Shown here: positions 5,986-9,928 of the stretch, in pieces | Numbering within the stretch: the stretch's first letter is position 1 | Layout: every line of letters begins with the position of its first letter | Source of the DNA: Hungatella effluvii | GTDB lineage: Bacteria; Bacillota; Clostridia; Lachnospirales; Lachnospiraceae | Direction: 5' to 3' | NCBI RefSeq assembly: GCF_003201875.1 | Contig: NZ_QJKD01000012.1 | Location: 1 to 64,000, forward strand | Length of the DNA: 64,000 bases | Made by a program: the position numbers and the translations under genes | Notes under the pieces: generated by a model | Databases searched by the model: none | What the model was told of the DNA's origin: nothing | What the model saw: the letters and a program-made list of their open reading frames with translations, nothing else

Positions 5986-7218
5986 TTACCCTTTCACCAC
6001 GCCGACCGTCTTCAGCTTTTTGACCGGGACGACCAGATCTTTCTGCTGATCCATCACATGGTCAATGTCTTTGTAGGCGAAGCGGCTTTCCTCCGCCACA
6101 TCGGATTTCTTCATTTTCCCCAGGACGACGCCCTGGGCCTTTAAATCATTTATGACTTCCTCGCAGGAGAATTTCTCCATTGCGGCCTTTCTGGAATAGG
6201 CCCTCCCTGCTCCGTGGGACGAGCTCTCGAAGCTCTCCGGATTCCCTTTTCCCATGACGACATAGCTGTAGGAACCCATGGCTCCCGGAATCACGGCCAT
6301 CTCACCGTTACCGGCTCTGGTCGCGCCCTTCCGGTGCACCCATACTTCTTTTCCGTAATGCGTCTCCAGGGAGGCGTAATTATGATGGCAGTTGATATGC
6401 TCGGTAAATTCCATGGTTGTATCCAGATACTTTTCCACCTTCTGAGCCACGATTTCCAGAGTTTTCTCCATCATACGCTTTCTGTTTTCAAACGCGTATT
6501 CCAGCGCCAGATTCATCCACAGGATATAGTCCTGTCCCTCCGCGCTGTCTACAGGAAGGAACGCCAAACGATACGAATCCGGGACAGCGCTGTGCCATGC
6601 GGCGTTCAGCACTCTTGCTTTGTTGTGAAAGTAATCGCAGATTTCCTTTCCAAAATGGCGGCTTCCGGAGTGAATCATAATCCCCAGATATCCATCCTGA
6701 TCCTCCTGAAGCTCAATAAAATGGTTGCCGCCGCCCAGCGTACCGATCTGGTAAAAGGCATCCTCAATTAACGGAAACAGCATCTCATTCTTTTCATAAT
6801 CGGCTGCATGCGCCAGGCACCGGTCCAATACCTCCGATTCCTGTCTCTTCTTATAAGAATTATAGCCGACAGGGATATTTCTCATAATCTCCCCGGTAAT
6901 GGCCTGGAACATGGTTCCATTGCCAGTCATGACCGGTTTTAAGTCTTCTGCTTTTATATTGGTAGAGACAAAATTCATCCCGCAGCCGATATCGACGCCC
7001 ACCGCGTTTGGAATGATGACGCCGTCCGCAGCAATGACTCCGCCGATCGGCATTCCTTTTCCCTGATGGGTATCTGGCATCAGGCACGCCCATTTATGGA
7101 TAAATGGAAGCTGCGCTAAGTGGCGCGCCTGTTCCAGACAGCCCTCTTCAACCTCTTCTATATTTTCCAGCCAGATTCTCACCGGCTTATTCATCTGCTC
7201 TTCTTTCCACGTAAACAT
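5986..7218 (-). CDS. rtcB: RNA-splicing ligase RtcB (3'-phosphate/5'-hydroxyl RNA ligase)
   Basis: Family signatures LMPDTHQGKGMPIGGV, GVDIGCGMN, GGGNHFIE, HSGSRHFG, HNYA and SHGAGR; 410 aa. Confidence 0.9.
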   Translation of the reverse strand: MFTWKEEQMNKPVRIWLENIEEVEEGCLEQARHLAQLPFIHKWACLMPDTHQGKGMPIGGVIAADGVIIPNAVGVDIGCGMNFVSTNIKAEDLKPVMTGNGTMFQAITGEIMRNIPVGYNSYKKRQESEVLDRCLAHAADYEKNEMLFPLIEDAFYQIGTLGGGNHFIELQEDQDGYLGIMIHSGSRHFGKEICDYFHNKARVLNAAWHSAVPDSYRLAFLPVDSAEGQDYILWMNLALEYAFENRKRMMEKTLEIVAQKVEKYLDTTMEFTEHINCHHNYASLETHYGKEVWVHRKGATRAGNGEMAVIPGAMGSYSYVVMGKGNPESFESSSHGAGRAYSRKAAMEKFSCEEVINDLKAQGVVLGKMKKSDVAEESRFAYKDIDHVMDQQKDLVVPVKKLKTVGVVKG

Positions 7219-7506
7219 AATTTCACTCCCCTTTTCAGATATGTACCAGGCTCCTGCCTGTTTTTAAGTTTTTGTTCTCTGTTGTGACTTTATCTTACCA
7301 GTATTTACCGGAGGAATCATTTAAAAAAGGGTGCGAACCTGGTGACAGCAGGAAAAAATGGAAGTATAATCAAATTTAACAGATGTTACAAGGGATACCG
7401 GGCGGGGCCTGGCGGATTCCTTAGGGCAGATGGCAGGAGTGAATTTTCAAACAGGCCCAGGGCCTAACAGAGCAGCGGAAGAAGTCCAGAAGGAAGTGAA
7501 GATACC

Positions 7507-8922
7507 ATGAAAGAATTTTCAGAGCTTGTAAAACGGTTCGACCGGATCCGCACCTACGTGCGGGATTTTTACGTATATGGTTTTAAGACCCGCGAGGACT
7601 ACAGCGAGGGCAGCGGCCGGACCTACGACAACGAGCGCCGCAGGATCGAAAGCTGGTTTTCTCCCTACATTCACAGCGAGTACAACGAGGAACGGAAGAA
7701 AACCGTAGCCATCATCGCACACAGCAACCGGATCGCCGTCAACCCGCTGTTTTCTGCCTGGAAATCGAAGAGCTTTACCTCCAATGACATCATGCTGCAT
7801 TTCTTTATTCTGGATTTTCTCGCAGATGGCGGATTTTACACGGCAGATGAGACGGCAGACGAGCTCCAGTGCCGGTACGGAGTCCTCTTTGACTCCCAGA
7901 CTGTGCGAAAAAAGCTGGTGGAGTACGAGTCTTTGGGAATTTTTACTGCGAAGAAGGAAGGGCGAAGGCTGCTTTACGGAAAGCGTGAGAATAGTTGTGA
8001 GGAAAATACCTCGAATCTGTGTTCCATGGATTGGCTGGAAAAGATGACCGATTCCCCCAGATTCCTTGACATGGTCAGTTTCTATCAGGGAAGCGCCGCC
8101 TTCGGATTTGTCGGCAGCACCATACTGGATAATCTTCAAAAGGAAAATACCGTATTCCGGCTCAAACACGACTTCCTGGTTCATACACTGGAGGACGAGA
8201 TTCTTCTGGAGCTCCTGCGCGCCATGAGGGAACGAAAAGAAATCCAGCTGGAAAATAAGAGCGCAAAGACAGGCCGGACCGAACAGGTGGAAGGGACTCC
8301 TTTAAAGATTCTGGTGAGTACCCAGACAGGCCGCCGCTACGTCATCGTTCATCAGACAAAATCAAAACGTTTCTCCAGCTTCAGGCTGGACTATCTCCTG
8401 TCGGTGGTGCGCTTAGAGTCAGAGGGGGAGGACGGGGAAGCCCGTTACGAACAGCATAAAAAGGATCTGGAAAAAAATCTTACTAAGACATGGGGCGTTT
8501 CCTTTGGCGACGGCCGGAAAAAGGAAAGCCCTCCTCTCCGGCGTCCATCGGAACGAACGGCACGGATGGAGTCGATTTCCTTTACCCTGTCGCTGGATGA
8601 AGAGCGGGAGGCTCACATTATCGGCCGTCTGGAACGGGAGGGCCGCGGCGGTACCATAACGCGGCTGGATCACGGCGTCTGGAGCTACACGCGGGAGTGT
8701 TTTGACTGCAACGAAATGATGCCGTGGGTCAAAACATTTACAGGACGGATTCTCTCCTTCTCCTGCTCCAATTCCATGATTGAAAAGAAATTCTTCCGGG
8801 ATATGGAACGCATGGCAAAGATGTATGCGGAAAGTCCCCCTCACTTACGTTCAGCGGAATGTGCGGAAAGTCCCCCTCACTTTTCCTCGGTAGAATCGGA
8901 GGTGAACAAGGATGGAATCTGA
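7507..8922 (+). CDS. WYL-domain transcriptional regulator (wHTH-WYL-WCX architecture, PafB/BrxR-like), first member of a pair
   Basis: N-terminal HTH_11-like block (GSGRTYDNERRRIESW), WYL-like core (TGRRYVIVHQTKSKRFSSFRLDYLLSV) and C-terminal WCX-like region. Divergent from rtcB. Confidence 0.5.
   Translation: MKEFSELVKRFDRIRTYVRDFYVYGFKTREDYSEGSGRTYDNERRRIESWFSPYIHSEYNEERKKTVAIIAHSNRIAVNPLFSAWKSKSFTSNDIMLHFFILDFLADGGFYTADETADELQCRYGVLFDSQTVRKKLVEYESLGIFTAKKEGRRLLYGKRENSCEENTSNLCSMDWLEKMTDSPRFLDMVSFYQGSAAFGFVGSTILDNLQKENTVFRLKHDFLVHTLEDEILLELLRAMRERKEIQLENKSAKTGRTEQVEGTPLKILVSTQTGRRYVIVHQTKSKRFSSFRLDYLLSVVRLESEGEDGEARYEQHKKDLEKNLTKTWGVSFGDGRKKESPPLRRPSERTARMESISFTLSLDEEREAHIIGRLEREGRGGTITRLDHGVWSYTRECFDCNEMMPWVKTFTGRILSFSCSNSMIEKKFFRDMERMAKMYAESPPHLRSAECAESPPHFSSVESEVNKDGI
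8826..8885 (+). repeat. Direct 20-bp repeat gcggaaagtccccctcactt, two copies 15 bp apart, inside the 3' end of the first WYL gene next to the 11-nt overlap with the second
   Basis: Read directly; encodes AESPPHL..AESPPHF. Confidence 0.7.
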
Positions 8923-9928
8923 ACTGTTTTCTGAAATCTATAACTGTTACTTTCTGGTCGTCCGGCGGATTCTGGACGAGGCCGCGGAACACGGGCTGTC
9001 AGAAAGCGACTTAAACCGTATCGCGGATACATACGGCTATGAGGAAAGTGCCCTCGCCATCGTTCCGAAGCTGGTGAGCGGGGAATGGAATTTACTCGTC
9101 AAATCGCCGGAGGGGCCGTCCGGCAAGCCGCTCTTTTTCTCCCGGGTAAAGGCACCGGAGCCGCTGCCGCTGACCGGGCTCCAGCTTTCCTGGCTGAAAG
9201 CAGTCTCCGCTGATCCCAGATTTCGCCTGTTTTTTACTGACGAGGAGTACAGGAAGCTGGATCTTGCATTAAGAAATGTTAAGCCGTTGTTTTATACGGA
9301 GGACTTTTCTTATTTTGACCAGTATTCCGACGGGGACGGGTACGAACTCGATTCATACCGGGAACATTTTCAAGCGATTCTGGAAGGGATCCGAGAGAAC
9401 CGGATCCTGGCCATCGATTACTTTTCGGCAAAAAACCACTTAACTACATTCCGATACCTTCCCTGCCGGCTCGAATACTCTGCCAAGGACGACAAATTCC
9501 GTCTCATGGCAGTCCGGGTTCGGAAGGATGACAGCTTAAGCCGTCTGACTATCCTGAATCTGTCGCGGATCATGCGGATTAAAGACACGGGAAAATCCCT
9601 GGAGATCCGGCCCGATATTGATGCCTGCTTAGAACACTCCCTCTGCCGGGAACCTGTGGTCCTGGAAATATCCAATGAGCGCAATGCGCTGGAACGGACC
9701 ATGCTTCATTTCGCCTGTTACAAGAAACGGACGGAAAAGCTGGGTGACTCCGGTAAGTACCTCTGCCGGATCTATTACAGCAGAGATGTGGAAACGGAGC
9801 TGTTGATACAGATTCTCTCCTTCGGACCGGTGGTAAAGGTGCTGGGGCCGGAAAGCTTTCTGAAACAGGTGAAGGAGCGGGTGGAGAGGCAGCAGCGGCT
9901 GTTTGTGAAAGACTGCAGTAACCCGTAA
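8912..9928 (+). CDS. WYL-domain regulator (WYL plus WCX; C-terminal LSFGPVVKVLGPESF motif), second member of the pair
   Basis: RILAIDYFSAKNHLTTFRYLPCRLEYSAKDDKFRLMAVRVRKDDSLSRLTILNLSRIMRIKDTG fits the WYL strand plus the R-F-R-L-x-R-I block. C-terminal ILSFGPVVKVLGPESFLKQV fits the WCX end. Confidence 0.55.
   Translation: MESELFSEIYNCYFLVVRRILDEAAEHGLSESDLNRIADTYGYEESALAIVPKLVSGEWNLLVKSPEGPSGKPLFFSRVKAPEPLPLTGLQLSWLKAVSADPRFRLFFTDEEYRKLDLALRNVKPLFYTEDFSYFDQYSDGDGYELDSYREHFQAILEGIRENRILAIDYFSAKNHLTTFRYLPCRLEYSAKDDKFRLMAVRVRKDDSLSRLTILNLSRIMRIKDTGKSLEIRPDIDACLEHSLCREPVVLEISNERNALERTMLHFACYKKRTEKLGDSGKYLCRIYYSRDVETELLIQILSFGPVVKVLGPESFLKQVKERVERQQRLFVKDCSNP

Follow-up and report, generated by a model that had tools for sequence, protein, structure and literature searches.

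In Hungatella effluvii, two adjacent genes that we call A and B run divergently from a gene for the RNA ligase RtcB, and both encode members of the helix-turn-helix (HTH)-WYL-WCX family of transcription factors. The stretch of DNA analysed here, termed the window, comprises the 64,000 nucleotides (nt) at positions 1 to 64,000 of contig NZ_QJKD01000012.1, and coordinates refer to window positions unless another locus is named. We consider it likely that the A and B proteins form a heteromer which binds a conserved operator between the divergent genes and controls, probably by activating it, an RNA-repair operon (the cargo) upon a nucleic-acid signal. Within this proposal we infer heteromer formation, operator binding, the sign of the regulation and the ligand from comparison with related loci, from predicted structures and from relatives of known function. 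The elements of the locus are as follows.

4307..5404, minus strand: SPFH/Band-7 protein, last gene of the cargo operon, 365 amino acids (aa), Pfam Band_7 match of 100 bits
5728..5945, minus strand: Y-RNA-like non-coding RNA (ncRNA), recognised through Rfam YrlA, nhmmer and covariation, boundaries approximate
5986..7218, minus strand: rtcB RNA ligase, first gene of the cargo operon, open reading frame (ORF) of 410 aa
7301-7293, minus strand: putative extended -10 box of the cargo promoter, TGGTAAGAT, of the form TGnTAnnAT, 15 nt from the operator
7317..7337, plus strand: asymmetric 21-nt candidate operator TCATTTNAAAAANNNTGCGAA (also given as TCATTTAAAAAAGGGTGCGAA), 0 mismatches, single occurrence in the window
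7342..7370, plus strand: candidate sigma-70-type promoter of the regulator genes, GTGACA-17 nt-TATAAT, scoring 11/12 in a consensus scan
7507..8922, plus strand: gene A, WYL regulator, ORF of 471 aa
8912..9928, plus strand: gene B, WYL regulator, ORF of 338 aa

Proteins A and B as a pair

The initial annotation of the window had described genes A and B as two ORFs that are divergent from rtcB and overlap by 11 nt, and had quoted peptide strings from both products as winged-helix, WYL and WCX motifs. The ORFs are as described, with the overlap at 8912-8922 in the ORF list, and all of the quoted strings are present in the translations; the domain assignment is upheld by profile searches together with predicted structures. 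Pfam WYL matches A at aa 231-300 with 23.6 bits (cut-off 21.8), and the PADLOC WYL model matches B (56.7 bits, E 8.6e-16) as well as A (E 1.9e-7), matches to WYL models being the only ones that PADLOC returned for the four proteins of the locus. The predicted structures described below agree. Pfam by itself is less clear on the remaining parts: B reaches 18.2 bits for WYL and 19.4 bits for WCX (WCX cut-off 23.9), both under the cut-off, and no Pfam HTH model matches either protein, even with E allowed to rise to 1. Neither protein is covered by an NCBIfam model, and some B homologues carry a precomputed match to PF25583 (WCX). The domain layout, in which the winged helices of A and B are known from predicted structures only, is as follows.

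Protein A: N-terminal region of ~90 aa; winged helix, aa 92-159; WYL, aa 231-302; WCX, aa 309-441; variable tail
Protein B: winged helix, ~aa 4-72; WYL, aa 151-221; WCX, aa 264-326

Protein A was modelled with AlphaFold from a 90-sequence alignment (mean predicted local distance difference test score, pLDDT, 72.6; predicted template modelling score, pTM, 0.50), and the model is confident (pLDDT 85-95) in the winged helix, in the WYL barrel at ~aa 246-302 and in the alpha/beta WCX domain. The winged helix of A runs helix-helix-helix-strand-strand over aa 92-159 (pLDDT 85-92). A B-type winged helix appears in the AlphaFold model of a natural A-B fusion homologue at fusion residues 459-525, corresponding to B aa ~4-72, and in this homologue the B half, which shares ~50% identity with window B, has a pLDDT of 81-97. 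When the A model was compared with the Protein Data Bank (PDB) by Foldseek, it gave full-length alignments with DriD (E 2e-11), PafB/PafC, BrxR and CapW, and it also matched the winged-helix regulators MecI, BlaI and SrnR. The alpha/beta domain that follows WYL aligns to the C-domain of DriD with template modelling (TM) scores of 0.60-0.65 for the fusion halves and 0.54-0.64 for window A. Profile comparison with PDB sequences was marginal (A to PafB, E 0.012; B to PafC, the best match of B, E 0.13), and hhalign aligned A with B in the WYL region only (E 0.003); A and B are very diverged paralogues.

The most conserved part of A is aa 1-90 (7507-7776, plus strand), an Arg/Tyr/Phe-rich region in which RDFxxYGFKxR and RTYDNERRRxES[WY] are near-invariant over 75 loci. 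No Pfam or NCBIfam model covers this region and PafB has no equivalent of it, so that in comparison with PafBC protein A carries an extra, invariant N-terminal ~90 aa. The region may be a new DNA-reading or partner-dependent domain, and its basic helix RTYDNERRR, invariant like the operator, is a candidate DNA reader. Residue 43 of A (E or Q/H) varies together with the base that precedes TGCGA in the operator (T or C), a weak indication because essentially one clade is involved. At the opposite end of the protein, the non-conserved C-terminal tail holds a 36-nt tandem duplication at 8829-8900 on the plus strand (AESPPHLRSAEC / AESPPHFSSVES), which is present in the closest homologues (P0005) and absent from more distant ones.

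Relatives of A were collected by a scan of one genome per species, which found at least 532, and the best 80 of these were taken for the comparison of loci. At 50% identity and E<=1e-10 the A family falls into 787 clusters; the hosts, among them Hungatella, Lacrimispora, Acetatifactor, Sporofaciens, Anaerocolumna, Roseburia, Dorea, Clostridium and Ligaoa, are all Clostridia. In 76 of the 80 loci (species) gene A is followed on its own strand by gene B, with a median distance of 32 nt from the last aligned A residue to the start of B, and in-frame A-B fusions, 730-855 aa long, are found repeatedly in divergent branches (P0104, P0106, P0109 and others). The pair is thereby supported as an obligate ordered unit with natural fusions. 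The reading of A and B as one frameshifted gene is rejected because separate ORFs are the rule (those same 76 loci) and B has a Shine-Dalgarno sequence of its own, GGAGG at 8898-8902, 9 nt 5' of its ATG. The overlap of the two genes is compatible with translational coupling.

The fusion P0104, 46-50% identical to the window proteins, was modelled with a joint alignment and reached a mean pLDDT of 83.5 and a pTM of 0.78. Its best PDB match by Foldseek is 6sj9, the natural fused PafBC of Arthrobacter aurescens (E 1.6e-18), and since the match extends over 758 columns, the same domain order runs across both halves; the TM-score between the two is low (0.25-0.28), from which it follows that the domains are arranged differently in space. 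Protein A alone models worse (pTM 0.50 against 0.78), with a low-confidence linker at aa 160-230, which is weakly consistent with B packing against A. PafBC, too, is made up of two different HTH-WYL-WCX paralogues whose genes lie in tandem and in some species are naturally fused, and the initial suggestion of a PafB/PafC-like pair is borne out by the ordered A-then-B arrangement, the natural fusions and the closest structural match. The fixed order, the overlap, the recurrent fusion and the PafBC-like tandem architecture support an A/B heteromer without proving it, and the fusions together with the better model of the fused chain suggest that it would be a heterodimer. Although most characterised WYL regulators (DriD, BrxR, CapW) are homodimeric, it is very improbable that A and B are independent homodimers which share an operon and of which one or neither controls rtcB: their order is fixed in nearly all loci, in-frame fusions recur, the top structural match of the fusion is PafBC over both halves, and the operator, to which we now turn, is single and asymmetric and contains no palindrome.

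The candidate operator and its promoters

Alignment of the regions upstream of gene A in the 80 loci yielded a conserved asymmetric motif, TCATTT[A/C]AAAAA-NNN-TGCGAA, which is near-invariant across genera. At up to 1 mismatch it is found in 78 of 81 loci, in constant orientation relative to gene A. The initial annotation had proposed to look for palindromic operators in the divergent region, and none came to light: the search of 7150-7560, around the 288-bp intergenic region, for inverted and direct repeats gave only weak repeats of 74-91% complementarity, and the idea was dropped because these are weak and not conserved. The asymmetric site itself was seen only by genome comparison.

The motif stands in a strict register with a putative promoter. 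A TAnn[AT]T hexamer recurs at one and the same distance from the operator in 70 of the 78 unique loci, 46 of which also have TGn; at any other offset, no more than 12 sequences have such a hexamer. A TTGACA-like -35 is absent from this cargo promoter and the ATGA(T) end of the motif fills its position, the operator spanning about -35 to -57 of a promoter that would fire away from gene A. A CA is conserved ~7 nt beyond the -10, and we infer that the cargo is transcribed from a site near 7286, its likely predicted start; in loci without rtcB, the predicted start falls within 3 nt of the 5' end of the ncRNA model in most cases. Two other promoters were considered for the cargo. A consensus scan pointed to a minus-strand promoter at 7391-7363 (9/12), which was set aside for the conserved extended -10 at 7301-7293, a box to which such a scan is blind because it has no -35. 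A sigma-54 promoter was rejected by eye, as no GG/GC -24/-12 pattern is present. On the regulator side, the candidate promoter at 7342-7370 starts 4 nt past the operator, and in other loci the regulator promoter lies, by eye, beside or over the operator in variable register; this adjacency or overlap suggests autoregulation of the A and B genes.

As to the sign of the regulation, activation is somewhat favoured over repression, because DriD and PafBC, the best structural relatives, are ligand-activated activators. The DNA sites of these two WYL activators are at or close to the -35 region, and in PafBC one HTH reads the DNA while the other contacts region 4 of sigma (PMC11804915). The same factor and operator might instead work by repression in the manner of BrxR and CapW, the protein occupying the -35/UP region and leaving it upon binding its ligand. 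The structural matches include BrxR and CapW, for which repression of defence operons has been described (PMC11888443), a promoter with an extended -10 can do without a -35, and in several loci the operator lies over the regulator's own -35/-10, as negative autoregulation would have it. We nevertheless regard a repressor as a doubtful alternative: the 15-nt phasing kept in 70 of the 78 loci suits an activator that touches RNA polymerase, whereas for a roadblock the exact position may vary; the site covers neither the -10 nor the start but sits upstream of the core promoter; and the best structural matches of A are the activators DriD and PafBC.

The cargo and its tRNA-like RNA

Control of rtcB by an adjacent WYL pair, as the initial annotation had it, needs to be reworded. 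Linkage of the pair to an RNA-repair locus containing rtcB is kept across Clostridia with no RtcR involved, and yet the constant partner of the pair is a promoter-operator cassette rather than rtcB. The first element after 79 motif-bearing promoters is rtcB in 45 cases, the ncRNA in 26, a DUF2828/DUF7788 protein (Pfam) in 6 and unrecognised in 2, and SPFH lies downstream of the ncRNA at 59 of the 79. In loci with the motif within 1.2 kb upstream, 36-1020 nt separate it from the start of gene A. In the insertion loci (L006, L035, L041, L048, L060, L076, L077 and L079) the motif stands 23-190 nt before the start of the cargo and gene A is 1-6.6 kb away, so the operator follows the cargo rather than gene A. 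With the motif kept at the cargo and the first downstream element varying, what stays constant is thus not rtcB but the operator-promoter cassette together with an RNA-centred cargo.

The association was also examined in reverse by scanning metagenomes with the motif alone, which returned 120 contigs. Fifty-seven of these carry the pair and/or the cargo, 46 of them with the phased -10, and the other 10 that could be tested have near-variants at the same offset. The remaining 63 carry neither, and a -10-like box at the offset is found in 2 of them; they behave as chance matches. Motif and cargo occur together with a flank of 1.2 kb or more in ~45 contigs, and in 42 of these gene A is present in divergent orientation. 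One locus, L006, has two copies of the cassette (L006:5249 and L006:6981), one before rtcB and the other before the ncRNA and SPFH.

The cargo is of several kinds: rtcB followed by the Y-like RNA and SPFH, as in the window; the RNA and SPFH alone; or the DUF2828 protein. In the last group (L013, L017, L023, L025, L031, L064 and L042) DUF2828/DUF7788 replaces rtcB/SPFH under the same WYL pair and operator, for example on the minus strand at L017:6054-7643; in L042 the DUF2828 gene is followed by rtcB, and in L064 a copy of the ncRNA precedes it. A relationship between DUF2828 and the TROVE domain of Ro60 is possible.

In the window, the rtcB product is covered by Pfam RtcB from end to end (383 bits, model positions 1-426 of 426), and its translation contains DIGCG, GGGNHF, HSGSRH and SSHGAGR, which we take to be the known metal-binding and guanylylation motifs. 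Matches of RtcB in tblastn that ended at residue 389 were an artefact of the SEG filter and reach residue 410 with the filter off. No RtcA or RtcR is encoded within ~5 kb of the locus according to Pfam searches of all sizeable ORFs in 451-14797, as the initial annotation had remarked for the immediate neighbours of rtcB. The SPFH gene is on the same strand, after a 470-nt gap downstream of rtcB. Its mechanical ORF (4307-5512) opens at a GTG at 5512 and encodes 401 aa; homologues align from about residue 30-37 and public gene calls have 365 aa from the ATG at 5404, which is most likely the true start. In the SPFH protein, a non-membrane N-terminal region of ~140 aa precedes the Band_7 domain.

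Between rtcB and SPFH lies the structured RNA that had been noticed as tRNA-like in the initial annotation, and which proves to be conserved in over 50 related loci, where it shows covariation (nhmmer detects it in at least 55 of 81). ARAGORN finds no tRNA or transfer-messenger RNA anywhere in the window; a canonical tRNA is therefore rejected as the identity of the element. The Rfam model YrlA (RF02553) matches 5750-5814 on the minus strand with 40.1 bits, under its gathering score of 69. The RNA begins with conserved 5' hairpins, after which comes a circularly permuted tRNA-like module whose core is ordered as a 5-bp stem (the opened anticodon stem), a variable region of 4-5 nt, a T-arm (GGTTCGAATCC) and an acceptor stem closed by a loop, and then, past this acceptor hairpin, a D-arm (GCTnAGTGGTAnAGC) and the return strand of the first stem. 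Covariation is found in the T-stem, the D-stem and one 5' hairpin. The closed acceptor hairpin folds in all 44 sequences compared, which differ in sequence, and the anticodon-like stem is paired 5/5 in 36 of the 44, representing at least 8 sequence types, with a mean of 4.82 pairs against 3.84 for shuffled partners. As judged from sequence and predicted pairing, the topology is that of YrlA, a tRNA-like Y RNA. The element is nonetheless not a YrlA member in the full sense: it shares the permuted tRNA-like topology, but it scores under the gathering threshold and the locus lacks Ro60 (Rsr), no match to Ro60/TROVE being found among the locus genes by Pfam. In L047 (7559-7647) and L078 (6271-6359), both on the minus strand, a second T-arm-like GGTTCGA occurs just past the first tRNA-like module, which suggests tandem modules in some species.

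The initial annotation had regarded this RNA as a plausible ligand of the WYL pair. The WYL and WCX folds are of RNA-binding type (PMC6789036), the RNA is always close by, and a product-feedback loop is conceivable. Even so, a role as the ligand that gates the pair is improbable, for the RNA would be made from the regulated promoter, being its first product in 26 of the 79 cases, and would carry no information on damage as a primary signal; moreover, ~16 motif-bearing promoters have no detectable copy downstream, some of them on short contigs. Being transcribed from the regulated promoter, the RNA is better read as an output, which leaves the ligand idea without support.

The composition of the cargo also bears on the input. 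The factor could respond to single-stranded DNA (ssDNA) or DNA damage, as PafBC, DriD and CapW do, with RNA repair as one arm of a genotoxic or phage-stress response. The ligand-bound WYL structures among the matches hold ssDNA (8tp8, 9c5g, 9fnd), and the Salmonella rtc operon is induced during the SOS response (PMC9879122). Such an input seems rather unlikely here, since every cargo type (RtcB, Y-like RNA, SPFH, DUF2828 protein) is RNA-centred and no DNA-repair genes were seen in the cargo under the operator, and since the ligand-contact residues of PafB are kept only in part in A and B when aligned by eye.

The genes that flank the locus encode GntR/UTRA and ROK proteins, a histidine kinase with a response regulator, and a major facilitator superfamily transporter (Pfam). 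Long, perfect-looking palindromes at 4211-4272 and 11160-11245, both intergenic and with sub-threshold Rfam 'microRNA' matches on both strands, are probably bidirectional terminators.

Proposed mechanism and relation to known regulators

In the mechanism that we propose, A and B would be the unlike subunits of one winged HTH-WYL-WCX factor of PafBC-like architecture. This factor would bind the asymmetric operator TCATTTNAAAAANNNTGCGAA, fixed at 15 nt from an extended -10 (TGnTAnnAT) without a -35, and the bound site would stand in for the missing -35 at the divergent rtcB / Y-like RNA / SPFH promoter, the unlike subunits fitting the unlike half-sites. Through its WYL/WCX domains it would respond to a stress signal derived from nucleic acid, with broken or single-stranded RNA as the most plausible candidate, and would switch the operon on; broken RNA is our guess because of the RNA-centred cargo and the precedent of RtcR (PMC7790460). 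The factor would probably autoregulate its own promoter beside the operator, and in Clostridia it would replace RtcR. A more detailed version of the mechanism is tentative and, as a whole, somewhat unlikely: a heterodimeric PafBC-style WYL factor of Firmicutes might use a shared WYL/WCX channel to detect damaged RNA, such as tRNA halves or 2',3'-cyclic-phosphate ends, and activate the RtcB/Y-RNA/SPFH operon by replacing the -35 contact in a manner similar to sigma adaptation, with the invariant N-terminal domain of A, of a kind not described before, reading the DNA. Such a factor would be an independently arisen analogue of RtcR.

Several points weigh against control of the operon by an A/B heteromer. 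Only association ties the pair to the operator; the motif is missing from 3 of the 81 pair loci, and L083, L100 and L133 have motif and cargo but no pair within the available flank. Together with the two cassettes of L006, these three loci also suggest that the factor can act on unlinked targets, which hints that unlinked regulon members exist. The T/A tract of the motif resembles an UP element, and part of the conservation of the site could hence reflect promoter function instead of factor binding. The heteromer-like model is that of a homologue ~46-50% identical to the window proteins rather than of these proteins themselves, the Pfam scores of B are under threshold, and the first 90 aa of A, its most conserved part, have pLDDT <62 in both models (39-61 with the deeper alignment). 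Known WYL ligands are mostly ssDNA, so that an RNA signal is a guess; the position of the site at -35 to -57 differs from the -26 element of PafBC; and BrxR and CapW of the same family are repressors, and the cargo promoter with its extended -10 could be active without an activator.

Among known regulators, PafBC, a heterodimeric WYL activator of the DNA-damage response that is activated by ssDNA and works by sigma adaptation, offers the closest architecture. In PafBC, as here, an asymmetric site stands in fixed register with the -10 of a promoter that has no normal -35. The differences are considerable, and A/B is not an orthologue of PafBC because identity is ~12% and the profile matches are marginal (E 0.012 and 0.13). 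PafBC hosts (Mycobacterium/Arthrobacter) are Actinobacteria in which the context is one of pafA and the Pup-proteasome, whereas A/B occurs in Clostridia without a pafA/proteasome context; the PafBC site is at -26 and the candidate A/B operator at about -35 to -57; and the output of PafBC is a DNA-damage regulon of ~150 genes, that of A/B an RNA-repair operon. DriD of Caulobacter, the best structural match of window A, is an ssDNA-activated activator that acts at a promoter, but it is a homodimer in the DNA-damage response, in contrast to the two different subunits, asymmetric site and RNA-repair cargo described here. BrxR and CapW share the HTH-WYL-WCX fold and are also encoded beside the operon that they control, although each works as a single homodimer on a palindromic operator with a cargo of BREX (bacteriophage exclusion) or CBASS (cyclic-oligonucleotide-based antiphage signalling system) genes, unlike the unlike subunits, asymmetric upstream site and RNA-repair cargo of A/B.

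RtcR has the same proposed role as A/B, that of a nucleic-acid-sensing regulator encoded divergently from an RtcB operon. The proteins are unrelated: RtcR combines CARF and AAA+ domains and acts with sigma-54, whereas A/B has WYL/WCX domains and a sigma-70-type extended -10, and the divergent RtcR and co-transcribed RtcA of RtcR-controlled rtcBA loci are both lacking here. In Pseudomonas an SPFH gene sits in the RtcR-controlled rtc locus (PMC13086221), and the Clostridial arrangement therefore looks like a displacement of the regulator. The cargo of the window, in which RtcB, Band_7 and a structured tRNA-like RNA between both are all three present, fits the RtcB-Band-7-tRNA-like RNA ('b7a-tRNA') repair systems that Burroughs and Aravind predicted in 2016 (quoted in bioRxiv 10.1101/312249); the RNA of the window is of the circularly permuted YrlA type and not an authentic-looking tRNA. 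A general link between WYL proteins and RNA repair is not entirely new, as some transcription factors with CARF or WYL sensors regulate RNA repair pathways according to a paper of the Aravind group, in which WYL-domain transcription factors are described with a reference to the same group's 2016 survey of RNA repair (PMC9503650). In the literature covered, outside of which the 2016 survey itself lies, we found no published account of this pair, its operator or WYL control of rtcB.

How the decision to switch on RtcB-based RNA repair is taken outside the RtcR-bearing Proteobacteria is the question that this locus addresses, and it bears as well on the role of the Band-7 and Y-RNA-like partners of RtcB. 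The system is compact, widely conserved and experimentally tractable, with two regulator genes, a 21-bp operator, a phased promoter and three cargo modules, and one relative with a complete genome, Hungatella hathewayi DSM 13479, is a strain from a type-culture collection. A/B represents a widespread, uncharacterised family of regulators. If the proposal is true, heteromeric, ligand-activated WYL regulation of the PafBC type would extend from actinobacterial DNA repair to RNA repair in Firmicutes, the pair would open a way to the physiological signal behind RNA repair, and the operator sequence could be used for mapping the regulon in gut Clostridia.

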